DNA of 64,000 nt, taken from NCBI GenBank assembly GCA_038204165.1, contig JBBRDG010000004.1, positions 4,330-68,329 of the forward strand, in the 5' to 3' direction. A program made the translations under genes and the position numbers. Shown in pieces: positions 7,233 to 38,637 of this stretch. Every line of letters begins with the position of its first letter. Positions within the stretch are counted from its first letter, which is position 1. Source of the DNA: Elusimicrobiales bacterium. Lineage in GTDB: Bacteria; Elusimicrobiota; Elusimicrobia; Elusimicrobiales; UBA9959. Below the pieces are notes generated by a model. It was given only the letters and a program-made list of their open reading frames with translations. It had not been told where the DNA came from and did not search any database.

Positions 7233-8303
7233 TTATTGCACTGCAGCCTTCCTGCGTTTAAGGAAAAAGCCGGTAAGTCCCGCCAACACAAGAGTAAGCA
7301 AGCCGCCCACCAGCCCGGCGACCGAAGTGCCCGCGTTCACCGCCGGCCAAGCCGGCGAGGGTTCATCTTTAAACCAGGGTGCGCCCGCGGGATCCACACC
7401 GCCGGCGGGGTCACGTTTCGTCTCGGCTTTTTTAAACCCGTAGTCAGGAAGAAAAGCGGTCTTCGCCTGCAGCGAGGCCAGCAGGCCGTGCAGCCTGCCG
7501 GGGGTTTCCAGTTCTTCCCTGCCGGAAGCCTTAGACATGGACCACTCAAGCCCGTCGGGATTAGCCGAGGCTAGCCAGCTCAACACCATGCCGGTTACAA
7601 TTGCCGCTGCGGCCAGCCCCAGGACTGTTTTTTTAACGTTCACACCTATCGGAGTGCGCTGGGCGGCGGCTGCCAGAATTTCAGGCCGCGCCTTAATCAT
7701 AAACGAGACCAAGCCCGCCGTAACCAGTCCCTCTACCAGACCTATAGCCAGATGTATCGGCTGCATCAGCAGCACGAAGGTTTTGAACGGCAATTCGGAA
7801 ATGCCTGAGGTTATCGTTTCCATAACCACGGCAAAGGCCCCGAACTGCAAACCTATTACCGCGGCCAGAGTAGCACCCAGCATCACTCGTTTTATGTCCC
7901 GGCTCCCGCCGGTAATTTTCCTATATATCAACGGGTAGGCCACAAAGCAGGTGAAAAAACCCATATTCAGCATATTGCAGCCAAGGGCAAGCAGCCCGCC
8001 GTCAGCGAAGAACAGGGCCTGAACGGTCAACACAGACGCTATTACGAGGAACGCCGCGTAAGGGCCGAGCAGGATGGAAAGTATCATGCCGCCGCCAATA
8101 TGGCCGCTGGAGCCGGTAGCGGGAATGGTGAAGTTAATCATCTGCGCGGCAAAGATGAACGCGCCCAGCACGCCCATAAGAGGGATCTTCCTGTCATCCG
8201 CCTCTTCTTTAACTTTCCTGGCGCTGTAGGCGATAAGCCCACCCGAGACGACCCACATTGCCCCCCCGACTGACGGGGAGATTAAAGCGTCTGCCATGTG
8301 CAT
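7233..8303 (-). CDS. ECF metal-binding S component, CbiM/NikM fused to an N-like C-terminal PDGLE domain
   Basis: The N-terminus MHMADALIS keeps the Met1-His2 metal-ligand motif of CbiM/NikM. The C-terminal extension contains NPDGLEWS (PDGLE domain) and a final TM helix. Confidence 0.8.
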   Translation of the reverse strand: MHMADALISPSVGGAMWVVSGGLIAYSARKVKEEADDRKIPLMGVLGAFIFAAQMINFTIPATGSSGHIGGGMILSILLGPYAAFLVIASVLTVQALFFADGGLLALGCNMLNMGFFTCFVAYPLIYRKITGGSRDIKRVMLGATLAAVIGLQFGAFAVVMETITSGISELPFKTFVLLMQPIHLAIGLVEGLVTAGLVSFMIKARPEILAAAAQRTPIGVNVKKTVLGLAAAAIVTGMVLSWLASANPDGLEWSMSKASGREELETPGRLHGLLASLQAKTAFLPDYGFKKAETKRDPAGGVDPAGAPWFKDEPSPAWPAVNAGTSVAGLVGGLLTLVLAGLTGFFLKRRKAAVQ

Positions 8304-8324
8304 TTTGTAGCGGCCTCCGTGCCA

Positions 8325-8351
8325 TTAATATACATTACGTGTTACTATTAA
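8325..8351. promoter_or_regulatory. inverted repeat TTAATA-N15-TATTAA between nikR and nikMN (candidate NikR operator)
   Basis: Read directly in the 56-nt nikR-nikMN spacer. It is an AT-rich dyad in an otherwise GC-rich region. The operator role is inference only. Confidence 0.3.
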
Positions 8352-8359
8352 ATAAAAAA

Positions 8360-8770
8360 TTATTTCCCCGCGCTGGTAACGCTGAGCGTAGCGTGTTTTA
8401 CGCCCTTTATGGATTTAAGGGAATCGGCCAGCTCTTTAACTTTGGAGGCCGGGCCTTTTACGGCTATAATCTCAAGGCAGTTGTCATGGTCCAGATGCAC
8501 ATGCTGCGCGGAAATTATAGTGTGGCCGTAATCATGCTGAATATCCAGCAGCTTATTTACGACTTCGCTCCGGTGGTGGTCGTAAACAATGGTTACAGCC
8601 CCCGCCACGTTCCCTCCCTTAGTGAAAACATCCGTAACGAACTCTTTGCGGATCAGGTCCGCTATGGCCTTGGAGCGGTTGTCGCAGCCTGCCGCGCCGA
8701 TATGGGCGTCAAAACGCCGGAGGAGTTCCCCCTCCAGCGAGACGCCGAACCTGATAAGTTTGTTTACCAT
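8360..8770 (-). CDS. nikR: nickel-responsive regulator NikR
   Basis: 136 aa. N-terminal ribbon-helix-helix (IRFGVSLEGELLRRFD) and a C-terminal ACT-like metal domain with an HxxH-type His cluster (YDHHRSE...HDYGH...HVHLDHDNC). Confidence 0.85.
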   Translation of the reverse strand: MVNKLIRFGVSLEGELLRRFDAHIGAAGCDNRSKAIADLIRKEFVTDVFTKGGNVAGAVTIVYDHHRSEVVNKLLDIQHDYGHTIISAQHVHLDHDNCLEIIAVKGPASKVKELADSLKSIKGVKHATLSVTSAGK

Positions 8771-8835
8771 TAGTGTTATCTTAAAAACTATAGTAGCACT
8801 TCGCCGAGTTCGGCCTCAAGCGCTTACGGTTAAAT

Positions 8836-10197
8836 TCAGCGGCGCTTTTTATTCACCAGGTCGTCTACCTTCTGGATGACCCGCAGGGCCAGGCCGGCCG
8901 CGCTTCTGGATTGAGTGGCGTAGGTGGCGTCCTTCATATGGTCCAGTTCCTTGCCAAGCTCCACCTGGATTGAATCGGTTTTTCTGATGGAAAGCACCTG
9001 TGACGGGTAGACGCTTTTGTGCCCGGTCATCAGAAAACTTATAACGCAGGCGACGGTGGCGTAAGGCGCAACCACCGGCCCGAAAAGCTCCACGGCCATA
9101 ATGCTGGCCGCTATGGGCGTATTGGCGGCCCCTGCCAGCACGGCCACAAAACCAATGGCGGCGAACGTACCGGAATCCAGATGCATAACCTGGGCGTACA
9201 GGCTGCCCACGGACGTGCCGATAAAGAATATGGGAGTAATTATCCCGCCGCTGCCGCCAAAACTCAGGGTGATGGAAGTAAAAACGGATTTAAGGAAGAA
9301 GTCGTACCAGGCCGCCGGCGCGCCCCCCAACATAGCTTCAATAGGTCCCAGACCGAGGCCCAGGTATTTTTTCGAGAACACCAGCGCCAGCAGAACGAGC
9401 GCCGTGCCGCCGAGCAGGCCTTTAAGAGGACTCCAGATCTTTATGCGTTCCGAAACCTTTTCCCCGTATTTCAGCAACTCGATCAGGAGCAGCGAAGCCA
9501 GGCCGAAGAATATCCCGGCGAACATAACCTTTAGCATAAATGTTTCGGAGAATATCGGCACAAAATTTATGGGCTTGTAGAAATAAGAGATGCCCATGGC
9601 GGACGACACCTGGTAGGCGGTTATCCCCGCGATGAACGAAGGCAGCAGGACTTCGTAAAGGATAGCGCCCACAAAAAGCACTTCCACACCAAAGATGGCC
9701 CCTGCTATGGGCGTGCCGAAGACGGCCGCGAAGCCTGCGCTTATGCCGCAGATCACAAGCTTTTTCCGATCGTGCTCGTTAAACCTGAAAAAATCGCTCA
9801 AAGCGGAAGTAAGTCCGGCGCCTATCTGGGCGCAGGGCCCTTCCTTTCCCGCCGAACCCCCCAAGGCAAGGGTTACCACAGTGGCGACAAGCTTTACCGG
9901 AACCACCGCGAGAGGAATTCTGGCGGCGTTCTTATGAACCGCCTCAATAACTTTTTCAGTGCCGTGCCCCTTGGCGTCGGGCGCAAGATACTTAACCAGC
10001 AGGGCGCTAACGAACAGCGCCACCGGAAGGAAAAGATACGAATATTCCCAGGTATTGGCGGCCACAGTAGAAATATTTAAGAGTTTAAGAAAAAGCGTGG
10101 TGGCAAAGCCGACTACGGCCCCGGCCACAGTGGCCAGAAATACCCATTTAACGATGCTTATGAACAGTAAGGTAGATTCAGTGATGTGTGTCTTCAT
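8836..10197 (-). CDS. ClC-family voltage-gated chloride channel/antiporter
   Basis: GSAGKEGP, GTPIAGAIFGVE and GGIITP selectivity-filter-type motifs. ATG at 10197 has an upstream AGGGA RBS and is preferred over the track start at 10248. Confidence 0.85.
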   Translation of the reverse strand: MKTHITESTLLFISIVKWVFLATVAGAVVGFATTLFLKLLNISTVAANTWEYSYLFLPVALFVSALLVKYLAPDAKGHGTEKVIEAVHKNAARIPLAVVPVKLVATVVTLALGGSAGKEGPCAQIGAGLTSALSDFFRFNEHDRKKLVICGISAGFAAVFGTPIAGAIFGVEVLFVGAILYEVLLPSFIAGITAYQVSSAMGISYFYKPINFVPIFSETFMLKVMFAGIFFGLASLLLIELLKYGEKVSERIKIWSPLKGLLGGTALVLLALVFSKKYLGLGLGPIEAMLGGAPAAWYDFFLKSVFTSITLSFGGSGGIITPIFFIGTSVGSLYAQVMHLDSGTFAAIGFVAVLAGAANTPIAASIMAVELFGPVVAPYATVACVISFLMTGHKSVYPSQVLSIRKTDSIQVELGKELDHMKDATYATQSRSAAGLALRVIQKVDDLVNKKRR

Positions 10198-10248
10198 TTT
10201 TATATCCCTGTTTTCATTATATGAAAGAGAGCCCGTTAAAGCCATCAA

Positions 10249-10649: not shown

Positions 10650-12068
10650 CTATTCCTCGGCCGGTTTTTCCGGCCCATTGCTTTCAAAGGAAACAGGGAT
10701 AATAAAACTTATCTCGGTCCCCTTACCGGTTTCCGACTGCACGTCGAGCATGGCGGCATGGCGGTCAGCCACCATTTTACAAAACGCCAGGCCGAGCCCG
10801 ATGTTCTTATAGCTTTTCCCCATAGTGCTGTACTTCCTGAAGATCTCCTCGCGAAAATTCTCCGGGATGCCCTCGCCCTCATCGCTTACATAAATGGCGG
10901 CTTTCCCGTTTTCCCTTATCCTTGCCCCGAGCTTAATCGCCCCTCCGGCCGGAGTGTACTGTATGGCGTTAAGCACAAGGTTGCCTATCACCCGCTTGAT
11001 AAGATCATGGTCGCCGAACAGCCAGGCGCCCTTTATTTCCGGAGCTAGCGCTAGTGCCCACCTCTTGCCGGCGGCACGGACAGAAGCCGCGTTTTCTCCG
11101 GCACATTCGCGCAGGAAATCTTCCAGCACCAAACGCTCCTTTTCCGGCTGATAGTCAGCGTTATTTAGCTTAGCGGTATTAAGAACATCGCCAATCATGG
11201 TCACAAGCATGCCTAACGACGTGCGCGCGATCTGCGCCAGATTGCGAAGTTGCTCTTTACTGAACGTTTTAGATTCCTCCTCGGAAAGCAGCAGGTCCAG
11301 CGAGGCCTTAAGCGCGGTAACCGGCTGTTTCAGATCATGCACGGTCATAGAGAAAAAGTCGTCCTTCTGAGTCTCGGCATTCCCGCGCCGTGTTTCTTCT
11401 TCCTTAAGACGGCTATGAAGGCCGGCAAGCGTTTGCGCTATTTTCCAGGTTTCCGTTCCATGGCTGAACGCGTCCTCCGCCGGAAGTGTATCAGCATTCA
11501 CGTTTTCAGCCAGTTCATTAAGAGCGCTCAGCTCCCGGCCCAGGCGTAAAGTAAGCAGCCATACGACCAGCATTATAACCGCGATGAAAATCAGGCTGAT
11601 GGCTATCCCTCGCCACATCAGGTTTTCAGTGATTTCACTTATTCCCGTCACTGAAACGCCCATTTCCATGTAACCATAACGGCTGCCGTTGCGGACAATG
11701 TCGCTTCGGGTATCGAAGACTTTATCCGTAACATCAAAAATATCTTTGTCGGCCGTTCTATTCTCTATACTTATACCGGGCTCTGCCCGCCTGTACAGCA
11801 CGTGGCCGCGCGTGTCAGAAACCCGGAGATAAGCGATCTGTTTAAAATTCTCGAAGTTTTTCAGTTTTTCCTTCAAGCGGACGGTCTCTCCTTTCTCCAG
11901 AGCCTCGCCGGCCATGTCCGTCAGAAAAGCGGTTATGTAATCTACCCGGTCCTGAGTGCGGCCCAGCAGCGCCTCCCTGGAACTTTGCACCCTGTCAAAA
12001 ATAATTACGGCGGAAAACACAAAAACCAAAACAGTTGTAAATAATATAAATTTAGTCCGCAGTTTCAT
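10650..12068 (-). CDS. sensor histidine kinase (TM - periplasmic domain - TM - HisKA - HATPase_c)
   Basis: H-box FFSMTVHDLKQP, N/G boxes (LNAIQYTP, DEGEGIP, GLGLAFC), and two TM helices flanking about 140 aa. Overlaps otsB by 17 nt. Confidence 0.85.
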   Translation of the reverse strand: MKLRTKFILFTTVLVFVFSAVIIFDRVQSSREALLGRTQDRVDYITAFLTDMAGEALEKGETVRLKEKLKNFENFKQIAYLRVSDTRGHVLYRRAEPGISIENRTADKDIFDVTDKVFDTRSDIVRNGSRYGYMEMGVSVTGISEITENLMWRGIAISLIFIAVIMLVVWLLTLRLGRELSALNELAENVNADTLPAEDAFSHGTETWKIAQTLAGLHSRLKEEETRRGNAETQKDDFFSMTVHDLKQPVTALKASLDLLLSEEESKTFSKEQLRNLAQIARTSLGMLVTMIGDVLNTAKLNNADYQPEKERLVLEDFLRECAGENAASVRAAGKRWALALAPEIKGAWLFGDHDLIKRVIGNLVLNAIQYTPAGGAIKLGARIRENGKAAIYVSDEGEGIPENFREEIFRKYSTMGKSYKNIGLGLAFCKMVADRHAAMLDVQSETGKGTEISFIIPVSFESNGPEKPAEE

Positions 12069-12843
12069 GTTTCCTCCTGCTGGCGATAATAAACCTGAGA
12101 AATTTTAGCACTTCAGACTGACTAGCAAGAAAATACCCGGCTTTTGAACCGGTACTGCGGCCAACCCGGACTGTTACTCCGCCCGAAACAAGCGCCTTGA
12201 ACATATCCTCGTCGGTAAGATCGTCCCCTACCGCCACGGCGAAAGCTCTCCCCAACCGTTTACGCAGCAATTCCAGAGCCCGGCCTTTATGGGTGGCGCC
12301 ACGCGTAACGAGTTCAAATACTTTGTGGCCGCCGCGCCAGTATAGATTCCCGCTTTGCGCATTGCCAAGAACTTTCATTCTGGCGAAAAAACCATGTTTA
12401 TAGGCCGGTTTAATATTCCTATAGTGCACGCTGGCTGAAAACACTTTGTTTTCCACCAACACCCCGGTTCCGGCGGGGAATCTTTCCTGGATGTCAGCAA
12501 CAATGCCTGGGATCAGGCCGCGAACTTTGGCCGCTGCCGCGTCGCGCCAGGCGAAACCCGGCCCCTCTATTTCCATACCGTGGTTTCCCCCGTAATAGAG
12601 GTTTTTTAAACCGACCAGCCGGCGCACGCTTTGCAGCGCCCGGCCGCTGAGGATAAAAACAGAAACCCCGGGCAGGGCAGCCAGGTCTTTAAGGGCTGCC
12701 TTGAACTCAGGCTTCAGCCGCGCCTGCCCGGGGGTTTCCGCCAGGGCCGCAAGCGTGCCGTCGAAGTCCAGGGTAACAAGCAGGTCCGGCGAGGCGGCCA
12801 GCCGCGCAGAGACAACTGCGGTGTTCTTCCAGAGAGACTTCAT
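12052..12843 (-). CDS. otsB: trehalose-6-phosphate phosphatase
   Basis: HAD motif I LDFDGTLA, motif IV GDDLTDEDMF. Immediately downstream of otsA (1-nt gap). Confidence 0.85.
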   Translation of the reverse strand: MKSLWKNTAVVSARLAASPDLLVTLDFDGTLAALAETPGQARLKPEFKAALKDLAALPGVSVFILSGRALQSVRRLVGLKNLYYGGNHGMEIEGPGFAWRDAAAAKVRGLIPGIVADIQERFPAGTGVLVENKVFSASVHYRNIKPAYKHGFFARMKVLGNAQSGNLYWRGGHKVFELVTRGATHKGRALELLRKRLGRAFAVAVGDDLTDEDMFKALVSGGVTVRVGRSTGSKAGYFLASQSEVLKFLRFIIASRRKHETAD

Positions 12844-12844
12844 C

Positions 12845-15100
12845 TTAAACCCCGGTAGACTTAAAATTACCCATGCGCAGCTTCATCAGTTCCTCTATCA
12901 GATTAGCCGCCCATTTATAGATATTATTTTCGTGCAGGTCCTGGCGCATGCGCGTCATCCGCTCTGTAACTTCCGTTTTAGGCATGGTGAGCGAATAGAA
13001 GATGGCGTCGGCCATCTGCTCGATATCGTACGGATTTACGATAAGCGCGTCCTTCATCTCGCGCGAAGCCCCGGCGAAACGACTCAGGATCAGCACGCCG
13101 CCCAGGTCCTCGCGCGCGGCCACAAATTCCTTAGCCACCAGGTTCATCCCGTCGTGCAGCGAGGTTACCAGGCAGGTATCGGCAATCTTAAAGAACTTAT
13201 TAATTGTTTTATGGTCATGATGTTTATCCAGGAAAACTATGGCCTTCCAATCCTTGGCCTTAAACCTCCAGTTTATCCGGTCTACCTCTGCATGCAGTTC
13301 CGCCAGGAACCGGTGGTACTGCGGGATATGCGTGCGGCTGGGGGCACCGATCTGGATAAGCGTGAATTTCTTCACGTATTCCGGATACTTTTCTAGAAAA
13401 CGCTCCACGGCCTTAACCCTTTCCAGCATGCCTTTGGTGTAGTCTATGCGGTCCACGCCCACGCCGACAAATTCGGCCTTGATGCCGAGTTCTTTGAGCA
13501 GCACCGCGGGGTCCGGTTTTAGAGCCGGGGCATTGCCTTCCGGGTCCGGGTGGGAAAAGTCAACGCTGATAGGAAAAGGCTTCACCGCGGTTATATGACC
13601 TTCCTTCTGCGCGGTGAAATGCTCCCAGTCTATGCGGGATTCTATCGTCCGGTCCACGGTCTCCAGGAAGTTGTTGCAGTAGAATTGAGTCTGGAAACCT
13701 ATCAGGTCCGCACCCAGGAGGCCCATAACCAGTTCCTTCTGCCACGGGCAAATGCCGAACGCTTCCGAATTCGGCCACGGGATATGCCAGAACACCGCCA
13801 CGCGCGCGTCGGGCCGCGCGGCTTTTATCAGGCCCGGCAGCAGGGTAAAATGATAGTCCTGTATCAGCACGCAGGGCTCTTTCACGTCGGCTATCTCTTC
13901 CAGCACCGTGTCCGCGAATTTCCTGTTAACTTCCTGATAATACTGCCAGTCCTCTTTTCTGAAGACCGGGCGAACGTGGGCTATGTGGCACAGCGGCCAG
14001 ATGCCCTCGTTGGAAAAGCCGTAATAGTAGCCGTCTTCCTCTTCCTTGGTAAGGGGAATGCGGCGCAGCGTGTAGGCCGGCTCTTCCGGCGGCACTTTAA
14101 TGCGGTTATGCGCATCCGTCACCTCGAAGTCGGCCTCGCCGCTGCCATGCGCCACCCAGGTGCCGCCGGCCGCTCTAAGGATAGGGTCCAGCGCCGTCAC
14201 AAGACCTCCGGCGGGGACTATAGTGAGGATCTCCTTGCCCTCTTTAATGTGCATATACGGCTCGCGGTTGGACACCACGAAAAGCGGCCGGCCGTCCATC
14301 TTCATTTTTATCTGTTCTTTCAAACGTTCCGGGGTCCAGAGGGATTCGCCTTTTTGACGTAGCCTGGCCTCGTTCTGCGCGGATTTTCTTGCCGCATGCA
14401 GATTTTTCGTGAGTGTGTTCACCTCAAAAGCGATCGGCGCAAAGATGTCCCCTTTTAACGGCGAAACTTGCTCGGAGGCCTCGCCGTTCCGGAGTTTTTT
14501 CATCCATTCCGCCATCTGCGTGAGCGGAGCGAGGACGTGCCACCGGACGACCAGGAGCGTGACAAGCGAGATCAGCAGCATCTGGACGAGCACCCGCAGC
14601 AGCGTCCGGATCCAGATCCGGAACAAGTCGTAGTCTATGTAGGAAACGTCTGTAAACAGGACTATCTTCGCCCGCTCCCCCCCGTTAACTTCAAAGGAAA
14701 CAGGGAACAGGAACATTTTCTTGTTGTTTATCGTATTCACCCTGCCGGAACCGTCCAGGCCCTTCAGCACTTCCTCTATCACTTTGGGGCTGGCGACCAG
14801 GGCCGAATCCAAGGAAGAAGAGCGGGTAATCAATTTGCCCTCCGGGTCATAGATGGCTATCCCGGTCAGCTGCTTCTGGTACTGGAATTTGTCCGCCATC
14901 TTCTGCAGCCCAGCGCGGTTTTTGGATTCGAGATTGCTCCGGGCTGATTCAATGAAGCTTTCCGCCAGCAGGGCGGAGCGCGACTGCACCTCTTCGTAAA
15001 GCTTTAGTTTTTCATGCCTTGCGTTGAACCAGGCCGAAACAATGGAGACAAAAACAACCACCACTATGAGCGAGACTATTAGTCTGACAGTTATACGCAT
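12845..15100 (-). CDS. otsA: trehalose-6-phosphate synthase (GT20) with an N-terminal TM - periplasmic - TM - HAMP sensor module
   Basis: The C-terminal ~480 aa carry GT20 hallmarks (VVSNREPY, GGLVTAL, FWHIPWP, GVDRIDYTKG, SLHDGMNLVAKE). The N-terminal ~270 aa have two TM helices and a HAMP-like linker. Confidence 0.85.
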   Translation of the reverse strand: MRITVRLIVSLIVVVVFVSIVSAWFNARHEKLKLYEEVQSRSALLAESFIESARSNLESKNRAGLQKMADKFQYQKQLTGIAIYDPEGKLITRSSSLDSALVASPKVIEEVLKGLDGSGRVNTINNKKMFLFPVSFEVNGGERAKIVLFTDVSYIDYDLFRIWIRTLLRVLVQMLLISLVTLLVVRWHVLAPLTQMAEWMKKLRNGEASEQVSPLKGDIFAPIAFEVNTLTKNLHAARKSAQNEARLRQKGESLWTPERLKEQIKMKMDGRPLFVVSNREPYMHIKEGKEILTIVPAGGLVTALDPILRAAGGTWVAHGSGEADFEVTDAHNRIKVPPEEPAYTLRRIPLTKEEEDGYYYGFSNEGIWPLCHIAHVRPVFRKEDWQYYQEVNRKFADTVLEEIADVKEPCVLIQDYHFTLLPGLIKAARPDARVAVFWHIPWPNSEAFGICPWQKELVMGLLGADLIGFQTQFYCNNFLETVDRTIESRIDWEHFTAQKEGHITAVKPFPISVDFSHPDPEGNAPALKPDPAVLLKELGIKAEFVGVGVDRIDYTKGMLERVKAVERFLEKYPEYVKKFTLIQIGAPSRTHIPQYHRFLAELHAEVDRINWRFKAKDWKAIVFLDKHHDHKTINKFFKIADTCLVTSLHDGMNLVAKEFVAAREDLGGVLILSRFAGASREMKDALIVNPYDIEQMADAIFYSLTMPKTEVTERMTRMRQDLHENNIYKWAANLIEELMKLRMGNFKSTGV

Positions 15101-15113
15101 AAGAGCTCCTTCG

Positions 15114-16160
15114 TTAATGAATGGCCGTAAGAGCCAGGAAGTAAATCAGCAGCAGCGCCAAGCCGGCGGGGATAGCCGTCTTTGCCCATTCCCGGCTTTT
15201 TATGCCGAGTTTGGAGGCGCATACTATGTTAGGGATATTCCCCGGGATCAGAACGCCGCCGGAAATGAGCAGACTGATAGTGAAGGAAAGTATCTGTTCC
15301 CTGCTCATATACGGAGTTATTCCCGCCGCCGCCAGCGTGGCGTTATCGAGAGCCGCGGAGCTAAGCCCCAGCCAATAAAGCTGCCAGCTGTTAAGCGCCG
15401 GAATCACCCGGCCGGCGATAGGGCTTAAGCCCTCGCCCAGGAATACCAGCGCCGCCACGAACACATAAACCTTGGCTGCCCGGAACAGTATAGTCCGGGT
15501 GCTATCCTCCCCTTCAGCTGTGTCCTTCCTGGAAACTGAGTCCCTGCCCAGCGGCCGCCAGTAGGCCGCCGCCGCTGCCACGGCGATTATGGCGGGAACT
15601 ACCCACAGCAGCAACAGCCGGGACAACCAGAAGAAGCCGGCATAGTGCGGAGCACCGGACAGCCTGGCCGTCACGATAGTTGAAAGCGGCTCGCCCAGGG
15701 GAGTCAGCGCCGCGCCGAGCCCGATAGCGAAACAGGCATAAACCACGGCCCGTATTTGCGATTGTTGGTCCAGGCGGAGATGCTGAATTATCTCGCAAAG
15801 AATTAGCGCGGCGATTATAGCTGTAATAAGGCTGGACAGGAAAGCTAGCGCGATAATAAGCGCAAAGAGAGCGTGCTTTATCCCGATTACGCGCTCAAGC
15901 CGCTCGATAAAACCTTCGACATACTTTTTGCCTGCCTTAAATAAAAAACCCGCGGCTAATACGGCCGCCGAGATCTTGATCGGGTCGACCAGCGACGCCT
16001 CTACCACATGCCAGCTCCACAAATTTGACACGGTCAGGGCGGCGCAGCCCATGAGCAGCAGAAAAAACTCCAGCTCTTCTTCAACCCGCTTGATAGAAAA
16101 CGGCAGCAACAGTACCAGCGCCATTATAAGCGCCAGACCTGGAATAGCCAAATATGACAT
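15114..16160 (-). CDS. polytopic membrane protein, DUF1646-like putative cation transporter
   Basis: 348 aa, about 10 TM helices. The N-terminal LPFSIKRVEEELEFFLLLMG resembles DUF1646 family members as I recall them. Not verified by search. Confidence 0.5.
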   Translation of the reverse strand: MSYLAIPGLALIMALVLLLPFSIKRVEEELEFFLLLMGCAALTVSNLWSWHVVEASLVDPIKISAAVLAAGFLFKAGKKYVEGFIERLERVIGIKHALFALIIALAFLSSLITAIIAALILCEIIQHLRLDQQSQIRAVVYACFAIGLGAALTPLGEPLSTIVTARLSGAPHYAGFFWLSRLLLLWVVPAIIAVAAAAAYWRPLGRDSVSRKDTAEGEDSTRTILFRAAKVYVFVAALVFLGEGLSPIAGRVIPALNSWQLYWLGLSSAALDNATLAAAGITPYMSREQILSFTISLLISGGVLIPGNIPNIVCASKLGIKSREWAKTAIPAGLALLLIYFLALTAIH

Positions 16161-16300
16161 TATGTCCCCTTTCCTGGACCGGTAGCGTTAAGCGTTGCGC
16201 GTATAAAAGAAATAGCCGCCTCCGGTAGTGTATACCTGAATGGCGGCCCGACCATTCCCATCCTTCGGAGGCTGAACTCCGAACCCTTATAAAGTTATTT
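16161..16300 (-). promoter_or_regulatory. structured 5' leader with competing hairpin, anti-terminator and intrinsic-terminator folds (candidate riboswitch or attenuator)
   Basis: On the minus strand there is a UUCGGAG-UUCAGC-CUCCGAA hairpin (~16264-16283). It is followed by a GGCCGCC-21 nt-GGCGGCU stem and AUUUCUUUUAU (~16203-16248). GCCUCCG of hairpin 1 is perfectly complementary to CGGAGGC, which overlaps the terminator 3' arm by 3 nt. Confidence 0.45.
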
Positions 16301-16375
16301 TACCGCATAAAGACAACGGCTGTCCACCTTATCAAGCCAAGGCGCGGGCGCCAACAAAACAAGCGGTTAAAGAAG

Positions 16376-16406
16376 CGGGCCGGATCTCTTTTTAAGACCC
16401 GGCCCG
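16376..16406 (-). terminator. possible terminator hairpin after argF
   Basis: CGGGCCGG / CCGGCCCG 8-bp stem with a 15-nt loop, followed on the minus strand by CUUCUUUAA. The U-tract is weak and the loop is large. Confidence 0.3.
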
Positions 16407-16428
16407 GCTATTACCCTGGAGGCTTTTT

Positions 16429-17433
16429 TCAGCGGCCGAGGGTGGCTACCATTACGGCTTTAATGGTGTGCATACGGTTCTCCGCCTGGTCGAAGGCGAT
16501 GCAGGCCTTGGACTCAAACACGTCCTCGGTCACTTCTACGCCGTTATTCAGGCCGAACTGCTCGCTAACCTGTTTACCCACCTTGGTGTCCGCGTTGTGG
16601 AAGGCCGGCAGGCAGTGCATGAACTTAACGTTCTTGTTGCCGGTCTTCTTCATCATGGCGGCGTTGACCTGGTAAGACTTAAGCAGCTTGATGCGCTCGG
16701 CCCAGACTTCCTTGGGCTCGCCCATGGAAACCCACACGTCGGTGTGCAGGAAATCCACCCCCTTCACAGCGGCGTCCACCTTATCGGTAACGGTAATGCG
16801 CGCGCCGGAAACCTTGGCTATCTCCTTACACTGCGCAATCAGTTCGGCTTCGGGCTGCAGGCCCTTGGGCGCGCCGATGCGCACGTCCATGCCCAGAATG
16901 GAACCAATTACCAGGAGCGAGCGGCCCATGTTGAAGCGGGCGTCGCCAACGTAGGCGTAGGAGATTTTCTCGAGCGGCTTGTCGCAGTGCTCGGTCATGG
17001 TCAGCACGTCGGCCATCATCTGCGTAGGATGCCACTGGTTGGTCAGGCCGTTCCACACAGGCACGCCGGCGTACCTGGCCAGCTCCTCCACTATCTCCTG
17101 GCCGAAGCCGCGGTATTCAATGCCGTCGTACATCCGGCCGAGCACGCGGGCGGTGTCCTTTACGGTTTCCTTGTGGCCCATCTGGCTGCCGGAGGGTTCA
17201 AGGTAGGTAACGTGCGCGCCCTGGTCGTGCGCGGCCACTTCAAAGGCGCAGCGGGTGCGGGTGGAGGTCTTTTCAAAAATGAGGGCGATGTTCTTGCCGG
17301 CCAGCCGCTGCTGTTCGGTGCCGGCGTACTTGGCGGCTTTAAGGTCTTTGGATAATTTCAGCAGGAAAACCAGTTCTTCTTTGGTGAAGTCGAGTTCTTT
17401 CAGAAAGCTCTTGTTCCTAAGATTAAAACCCAT
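16429..17433 (-). CDS. argF: ornithine carbamoyltransferase
   Basis: STRTR carbamoyl-phosphate motif ([13 protein letters not shown]), HPTQ, and HCLPAFH ornithine-binding motif. 334 aa. Confidence 0.93.
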
Positions 17434-36464: not shown

Positions 36465-36548
36465 GGTTGGGTGACTGAGCGGTCAAAAGTAACGGTCTGT
36501 AAAACCGTCGGGCTACGCCCTACGAAGGTTCGAATCCTTCCCCAACCA
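36465..36548 (+). tRNA. tRNA-Tyr (anticodon GTA), class II with a long variable arm
   Basis: Acceptor GGTTGGG/CCCAACC, anticodon stem-loop ACGGT-CTGTAAA-ACCGT, T-loop GGTTCGAATCC. CCA is not encoded. Confidence 0.85.
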
Positions 36549-36571
36549 TACTTAATTCAGCACTGTTTTAT

Positions 36572-36655
36572 GCGCGGGTGGCGGAACTGGCAGACGCGCA
36601 CGGCTCAGGACCGTGTGACCGAAAGGTCTTATGGGTTCAACTCCCTTCCCGCGCA
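36572..36655 (+). tRNA. tRNA-Leu (anticodon CAG)
   Basis: Acceptor GCGCGGG/CCCGCGC, anticodon stem-loop CACGG-CTCAGGA-CCGTG, long variable arm, T-loop GGGTTCAACTCCC. Confidence 0.85.
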
Positions 36656-38547: not shown

Positions 38548-38637
38548 TGGCGGAGAGGAAGGGATTCGAACCCTTGATACCCTTTCGAGTATACAGACTT
38601 TCCAGGTCTGCGCCTTCAACCGCTCGGCCACCTCTCC
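38548..38637 (-). tRNA. tRNA-Ser (anticodon GGA), CCA encoded
   Basis: On the minus strand: GGAGAGG acceptor, D-arm GCCGAGCGGTTGAAGGC, anticodon stem-loop CAGAC-CTGGAAA-GTCTG, long variable arm, T-loop GGTTCGAATCC, ...CTCTCCGCCA. Confidence 0.85.

Follow-up and report, generated by a model that had tools for sequence, protein, structure and literature searches.

The leader RNA described here, read from the minus strand of a 64,000-nucleotide stretch of DNA (hereafter the window), is very probably a transcriptional ON riboswitch of the nhaA-I structural class, judged by its match to the family model and by its predicted folds, and falls into the terminator-bearing subtype described as Na+-II. 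It belongs to a curated, experimentally characterised family in which its gene associations are already listed. A cmscan search of the whole 64-kb window against Rfam at the gathering threshold returned a single cis-regulatory match, nhaA-I (RF03057), at 16286-16238 (-), which covers model positions 1-55 of 55 with 41.4 bits (gathering score 37; E = 8e-05 for the 64-kb window and 4e-07 for a 351-nt subregion). The same search also found three tRNA genes, at 36465-36655 (+) and 38551-38637 (-), which are unrelated to the leader. The motif elements GGGU, AGG and UGGUCGGGCCGCCA are all present in the RNA, and the P2 core UGGUCGGGCCGCCA matches the Rfam consensus letter for letter, its U included. 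Counted against the riboswitch reading are the margin over the gathering threshold of just 4.4 bits, a junction of AGGA in place of the AGGU of the Rfam consensus, and the interruption of the terminator U tract AUUUCUUUUAU. An earlier note on this DNA had called the region a ligand- or protein-controlled transcription attenuator in a 5' leader, built from an upstream hairpin and an intrinsic terminator, and had proposed an Rfam search; its general call of a ligand-controlled attenuator was right, while the family to which the RNA belongs had gone unrecognised. The features of the locus are collected in Table 1.

Table 1. Features of the nhaA-I leader, its surroundings and the genes that follow it (window coordinates)
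Feature	Position	Strand	Details and basis
Upstream ornithine carbamoyltransferase (OTCase) gene	17433-16429	-	Pfam OTCace
Upstream OTCase terminator, 13 bp, separate	16376-16406	-	Terminator scan; makes the leader its own transcription unit
Promoter-like site	16297-16326	-	TGGACA 16326-16321, 18-nt spacer, TAAAAT 16302-16297; consensus scan, 10/12 matches; putative
nhaA-I class aptamer: GGGU, P1, AGG junction, P2 with CGGGCC loop	16238-16286	-	cmscan
P1 hairpin (hairpin 1 of the earlier note)	16264-16283	-	UUCGGAG 16283-16277, loop UUCAGC, CUCCGAA 16270-16264; -9.4 kcal/mol
GCCUCCG, 5' half of the anti-terminator proposed earlier (P1 loop and 3' arm)	16266-16272	-	Complementary to CGGAGGC 16224-16218; regarded as coincidental
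J1/2 junction AGGAUGG	16258-16264	-	AGG columns nearly invariant in the alignment of relatives
P2 hairpin	16238-16257	-	GAAUGGU 16257-16251, loop CGGGCC 16250-16245, GCCAUUC 16244-16238; -8.4 kcal/mol; in the Rfam alignment
U16251, equivalent of D. propionicus C54 (Rfam model position 42)	16251	-	Mapped from WT/M4 templates, Supplementary Table II, PMC9646797
Intrinsic terminator hairpin, 14 bp, two 1-nt bulges	16214-16248	-	MFE of the full leader; about -19.6 to -19.2 kcal/mol
U-rich tract AUUUCUUUUAU, 3' of the terminator stem	16203-16213	-	Read from the sequence
Shine-Dalgarno-like AGGGGA, 4 nt before the DUF1646 AUG, outside the switch	16165-16170	-	Read from the sequence; putative
First gene: DUF1646-family membrane protein, predicted cation/H+ antiporter	15114-16160	-	Pfam PF07854, E = 6e-100
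Second gene: 751-aa OtsA-like trehalose-6-phosphate synthase	12845-15100	-	Pfam Glyco_transf_20, E = 3e-115, residues 274-738
Third gene: OtsB-like trehalose-phosphatase	12052-12843	-	Pfam Trehalose_PPase, E = 7e-33
Fourth gene: histidine kinase, 17-nt overlap with otsB	10650-12068	-	Pfam HisKA, HATPase_c

For the full leader the minimum free energy is -31.2 kcal/mol (z = -2.0), and the centroid structure consists of hairpin 1 followed by a bulged 14-bp terminator (16248-16214), at the base of which GGCCGCC (16248-16242) pairs with GGCGGCU (16220-16214). The isolated aptamer has P1 and P2 as its minimum free energy structure, at -17.8 kcal/mol with a fold z-score of only -1.0; together, the nhaA-I E-values and the z-score of -2.0 for the full leader mark the region as non-random. 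The 5' arm of the terminator (16248-16233) is composed of the GGCC of the P2 loop, the entire P2 3' arm and a few further bases, and the alternative between P2 and the terminator is therefore the switch. As in Na+-II RNAs, the expression platform is thus an intrinsic terminator that is mutually exclusive with the aptamer, and because the two already exclude each other a separate anti-terminator is unnecessary. During growth of the transcript the minimum free energy structure is P1 plus P2 until position 16222 and P1 plus terminator from 16214 on, and the final structure of P1 and terminator lies at -29.0 kcal/mol compared with -17.8 kcal/mol for P1 and P2. Since the terminator is the more stable of the two, a ligand-stabilised aptamer must hold P2 kinetically for read-through to occur.

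The mechanism we propose would begin with transcription starting a few nucleotides upstream of GGGU, after which P1 and P2 would fold first and, by homology, form a monovalent-cation pocket together with GGGU, the AGG junction and the CGGGCC loop. An ion bound in this pocket would lock P2 and its loop while 16237-16203 is being transcribed, so that the terminator could not nucleate and polymerase would proceed into the DUF1646, otsA-like and otsB genes and probably the histidine kinase gene. With no ion bound, the terminator would strip GGCC and GCCAUUC from P2, and transcription would stop at the U tract. This ON logic is predicted from homology to the Desulfobulbus propionicus RNA, whose terminator is built alike. 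The latter, named Na+-II, gave Na+-dependent read-through in single-round transcription, and its response was lost in mutants M2, in which the GG of the AGG junction is changed, and M3, which alters the loop (PMC9646797).

We surveyed terminator-type relatives with a pattern scan of reference genomes (GGGT..TRGYCGGGCCGCYA..GCGGCNNTTT, exact core required), which gave at least 119 loci; from the listed loci 145 instances were parsed, which reduce to 143 unique RNAs with the window counted in. Three of the 119 listed loci (L001, L024 and L039), in which P1 and AGG are missing, were set aside as fortuitous. In a MAFFT alignment of the 143 RNAs among the matches listed, 94.2% of aptamer pairs are paired compared with 83.2% in shuffles, and P1 and P2 have a covariation score of 0.468 against 0.242 in shuffles, a value reached by 0 of 500 of them, with slid controls at 0.10-0.16. 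Across the listed relatives six of the seven P1 pairs change on both sides, with 98% of cells paired, as do four of the seven P2 pairs, with 90.5% of cells paired. The terminator design is likewise common to all 143 listed RNAs, with a mean of -22.4 kcal/mol by per-sequence folding, compared with -19.2 kcal/mol for the window, and in every one of them (143/143) GGCCGCY pairs with the 8 nt that immediately precede the U tract. Among these RNAs the P2 3' arm is more complementary to the cognate terminator 3' arm than to non-cognate ones (p = 5e-20). Because loop lengths and bulges put the inner terminator pairs out of register in the MAFFT alignment, column-wise counts of them were uninformative, and end-anchored counts and per-sequence folding were used in their place. 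Among 14 sampled relative loci all but one passed the Rfam gathering score, with 17 matches of 37.3-53.2 bits; the exception, L049, gave zero nhaA-I matches at that score.

These data bear directly on the switching scheme of the earlier note, which quoted the RNA exactly as the minus strand reads from 16286 to 16203 and proposed a three-state attenuator, in which a GCCUCCG/CGGAGGC anti-terminator competes with hairpin 1 and a ligand or protein chooses between them. Its parts are real: hairpin 1 (UUCGGAG/CUCCGAA) is P1 of the aptamer, and the terminator GGCCGCC/GGCGGCU with its U tract stands and extends to 14 bp with two bulges. The perfect 7-nt complement is also literally present (16272-16266 with 16224-16218), would take 3 nt from the terminator stem, and a structure forced to include the helix reaches -26.6 kcal/mol, yet we regard this three-state scheme as highly improbable, given that the complementarity is at chance level and that an anti-terminator role for it finds no support. 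The window is the only one of the 143 listed RNAs with a run of six or more contiguous Watson-Crick pairs at this place, and runs of at least seven occur in 0.4% of non-cognate pairings, so that about 0.5 would be expected among the 143 listed RNAs and one, the window, is seen. The proposed duplex is no better in cognate than in non-cognate pairings of these RNAs, whether by mean run (3.17 vs 3.20, p = 0.63) or by mean dG (-6.01 vs -6.05 kcal/mol, p = 0.70), and its columns in the 143-sequence alignment are 50.2% paired compared with 50.1% in shuffles, with a covariation of 0.173 vs 0.175. The comparative alignment that the note had suggested thus upholds P1, and also P2, and fails to uphold the anti-terminator pairing. 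Alternative-fold calculations, likewise suggested, put the occupancy of the helix at no more than 0.14 at any transcript length and at 0.00 once the terminator is complete. In the nearest Elusimicrobia relatives among the matches listed the duplex amounts to just 4-5 bp, as these read CCGGA-C/A-GGCGGC, where an extra nucleotide splits the run; the window is without that one nucleotide, and the contiguous CGGAGGC therefore arises. We conclude that the GCCUCCG/CGGAGGC pairing is coincidental. The scheme also clashes with the ON switch of the family, because an unfolded aptamer would then yield read-through. What competes with the terminator is instead the P2 hairpin with its conserved CGGGCC loop, both of which the note had overlooked.

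Equally improbable, in our judgement, is that the structure is unregulated, a constitutive terminator or RNA-stability element that resembles nhaA-I by chance: the modest score of 41.4 against 37 and the z-score of only -1.0 for the isolated aptamer would fit such a view, but they are set against a full-length model match with an invariant core, a position 5' of an operon and behind a promoter-like site of its own, the retention of the element ahead of this operon in orthologous leaders, and a coupling of P2 to the terminator that is family-wide among the matches listed. A ribosome-mediated attenuator with a leader peptide was considered and rejected. The earlier note had seen no evident leader peptide, which is essentially right, as the only candidate is a 33-codon ORF (16261-16160, -) that starts within the aptamer junction and is not conserved, the corresponding frame in the relative L007 stopping after 7 codons. 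From its AUG in the junction this ORF reads across the terminator to a closing UAAUG, in which it overlaps the start codon of DUF1646.

The leader appears to form a transcription unit of its own. From the position of the promoter-like site, the transcription start is predicted at about 16290-16288, 2-4 nt before the GGGU of the aptamer, and a TA..A element resembling a -10 box is found at equal distance in four orthologous Elusimicrobia leaders. The idea that the leader hairpin serves as the terminator of the upstream gene was discarded, as a 13-bp terminator (16406-16376) belongs to the OTCase gene itself and is followed by the promoter-like site. That terminator is a strong GC-rich hairpin with a CTTCTTT tail directly 3' of the stop codon, and it accounts for a spurious match to mir-3926, found on both strands. 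On its other side the leader lies 43 nt upstream of the DUF1646 gene, which is followed by the otsA-like gene and otsB, and Supplementary Table I of PMC9646797 lists DUF1646 in 4 cases and otsA in 16 cases among the gene associations of nhaA-I RNAs. The histidine kinase gene is probably part of the same operon because of its overlap with otsB. The OtsA-like protein carries at its N terminus about 270 residues of transmembrane, sensor-like extension, which anchors it in the membrane; this region of ~270 aa has no significant Pfam match, with SMP_2 alone appearing below threshold (21.1 bits against a cut-off of 28.9), and such a transmembrane N-terminal architecture is unusual for a trehalose-6-phosphate synthase. 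Further downstream on the same strand (7233-10248, -) are other ion-related neighbours, namely a CLC-type chloride channel, a NikR-like regulator and a CbiM/PDGLE metal-uptake protein.

The closest loci among the matches listed are the Elusimicrobia metagenome-assembled genomes (MAGs) L046, L007, L028 and L050, whose OtsA-like proteins share 74-78% amino acid identity with that of the window, and seven metagenome contigs belong to the same clade. At the nucleotide level the leaders of L046 and L007 are 83-86% identical to that of the window and the leader of L050 76%, and the leader of L028 lies within a longer 67% match. Aptamer and terminator have been kept in these orthologous Elusimicrobia leaders, in contrast to the diverged flanks; P1 carries compensatory substitutions such as UCGGAG/CUCCGA versus CCAGAG/CUCUGG, and the U tract GGCGGCTATTTCTTTT is identical in L046 and L007. 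DUF1646 is the first gene also in L028, L120 and L122, whereas L007, L046 and L050 run straight into the otsA-like gene. In two metagenome relatives (L124:413-3608 and L126) DUF1646 is reduced to its last ~43 codons, corresponding to 15242-15114 of the window, a remnant which begins about 20 nt after the riboswitch terminator and is followed by the otsA-like gene, and DUF1646 seems to have been largely deleted in this lineage. A further Elusimicrobia MAG (L104:1082-1131, +) holds a second nhaA-I aptamer of 48.5 bits, which is without a terminator and ends 13 nt before the ATG of the otsA-like gene; the same gene family is therefore found under a different expression platform.

Across the wider survey, phyla were counted from the labels in submitters' titles. 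Labels other than Deltaproteobacteria were attached to at least 40 listed loci, with Omnitrophota (12), Elusimicrobia (11), Planctomycetes (4) and Nitrospirota (4) followed by Spirochaetes (3), Actinomycetota (3), NC10 (1), Desantisbacteria (1) and Ozemobacteraceae (1). At model position 42 the terminator-type RNAs have U in 136 and C in 7 of 143 among the matches listed, and in all 143 a pyrimidine follows GGGU, giving a pyrimidine-purine pair at the base of P1. The proportions drawn from this exact-core scan (U ~95%, non-deltaproteobacterial labels ~35%) are estimates among the matches listed. Downstream genes were called by a simple first-ORF rule, by which some calls are probably wrong, and only Pfam family totals were used: in the 97 related units among the matches listed, the first genes include pentapeptide-repeat (11), Glyco_transf_20 (10), CitMHS (7) and MscS (6) families, together with NhaA, NhaB, Na_H_Exchanger and TrkA, and salt and osmotic functions dominate. 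The commonest of these first genes, encoding pentapeptide-repeat proteins (11 of the 97 listed units), has no obvious link to cation biology. An OtsA-like homolog was detected by tblastn in 23 of the 119 listed riboswitch loci. Tandem arrays of two to three complete aptamer-terminator copies were seen in 20 of 120 listed units (for example L013, L045, L115 and L023), and tandem copies have been mentioned for nhaA-I RNAs (PMC9646797).

Which ion the riboswitch senses is less clear-cut than its class. On balance we favour Na+ as the most likely physiological ligand, possibly with a cross-response to Li+ or NH4+. Na+ is favoured because the operon putatively exports cations and makes the osmoprotectant trehalose, and we counted in the same direction the salt and osmotic functions of the genes downstream of relatives (97 listed units) and the pyrimidine-purine pair at the P1 base, which the window has in common with the Na+-validated D. 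propionicus RNA. A response to Li+ or NH4+ is possible because the specificity position is occupied by U. C54 of the D. propionicus RNA, which lies directly 5' of the CGGGCC loop as placed by comparison of the WT and M4 sequences (Supplementary Table II, PMC9646797), was shown to narrow the response to Na+, and in the C54U mutant (M4) Li+, Na+ and NH4+ all elicited a response (PMC9646797). In the window the equivalent of C54 is U16251, and selectivity for Na+ is therefore not to be assumed.

The same nucleotide could be taken to indicate a Li+-selective riboswitch of the Li+-I type, to which the validated nhaA-I members belong (White et al., 2022, PMC9646797), responding through U16251 to toxic Li+ and inducing a cation exporter. 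We consider this unlikely. U16251 is indeed the nucleotide of most nhaA-I RNAs, the core UGGUCGGGCCGCCA is the Rfam consensus, and DUF1646 is a predicted cation/H+ antiporter; against this, the P1 base pair is G-C and the junction AGGU in both the validated Li+-I RNAs and the Rfam consensus, where the window has U-A and AGGA, Li+-I RNAs are mostly without terminators and the terminator-bearing RNAs differ from them in gene associations (PMC9646797), trehalose synthesis by OtsA and OtsB suits osmotic or Na+ stress more than Li+ detoxification, and the U54 mutant of the Na+-II RNA kept its Na+ response (PMC9646797). We also put forward, more tentatively than the assignment to Na+ and as a possibility that we rate below even chances, that the terminator-bearing nhaA-I RNAs with U (136 of the 143 listed, with at least nine phylum-level labels, the window among them) are a functionally distinct sensor. 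The single RNA of this architecture to have been assayed, that of D. propionicus, falls in the minority (5% among the matches listed) with C. The RNAs with U might be a deliberately broad switch for monovalent cations (Na+, Li+, NH4+) or ionic strength, in keeping with the behaviour of the C54U mutant, and if so, salt load would be coupled directly to the synthesis of a compatible solute, trehalose, and to ion export.

Altogether, the riboswitch most likely lets transcription into an operon for Na+ export and trehalose synthesis as salt rises. An operon that contains DUF1646, a family of unknown function, and an unusual membrane-anchored trehalose-6-phosphate synthase thereby gains a regulator and a signal, salt or Na+, that is likely to induce it. 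Nothing found here overturns current understanding, and two points of the survey go modestly beyond the description of 2022. Terminator-bearing nhaA-I variants were then described as rare, as found only in Deltaproteobacteria and as lying upstream of genes of unknown function (PMC9646797), whereas the phylum labels suggest that the terminator-type branch is far more widespread. The survey also suggests that the C54 archetype is atypical of this branch, with C in 7 of 143 (5%) among the matches listed.

Three characterised systems can be compared with the window. Na+-I, the DUF1646 motif (White et al., 2022, PMC9337991), resembles it in the control of a DUF1646 gene, in a two-hairpin aptamer of similar outline, in a terminator-based ON switch and in a link to osmotic-stress genes. 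The consensus models of the DUF1646 motif and nhaA-I can be told apart by the lower portion of P1 and by the P2 loop (PMC9646797), and a permissive cmscan of 16100-16450, with E up to 10, gave only nhaA-I and a meaningless mir-3926 match, so that Na+-I was set aside. With Li+-I, the mainstream of nhaA-I (RF03057), the window shares a passing score with the Rfam model, the P2 core UGGUCGGGCCGCCA including its U, and a cation transporter gene. In the Rfam consensus and three Li+-validated constructs GGGU is followed by G, and the base of P1 is a conserved G-C pair, in contrast to the pyrimidine and the U-A pair of the window; translational control has been speculated for most Li+-I members (PMC9646797), whereas the window has a transcription terminator, and the window RNA is not upstream of nhaA and controls trehalose synthesis genes. 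The closest parallel in architecture is Na+-II, with its D. propionicus archetype upstream of a hypothetical gene. Both RNAs have GGGU, P1, AGG, P2 and the CGGGCC loop, a pyrimidine-purine pair at the base of P1, and a terminator 5' arm formed from the P2 loop and the P2 3' arm ahead of a U tract, with the same predicted ON logic. They differ at the specificity position (C54 in Na+-II, U16251 in the window), in the neighbouring P2 pair (A-U vs G-C) and in the junction (AGGU vs AGGA). They differ also in host, a deltaproteobacterium as opposed to an apparent relative of Elusimicrobia, which departs from the Deltaproteobacteria-only distribution, and in the genes that follow, which in the window are identifiable as DUF1646, otsA-like and otsB.
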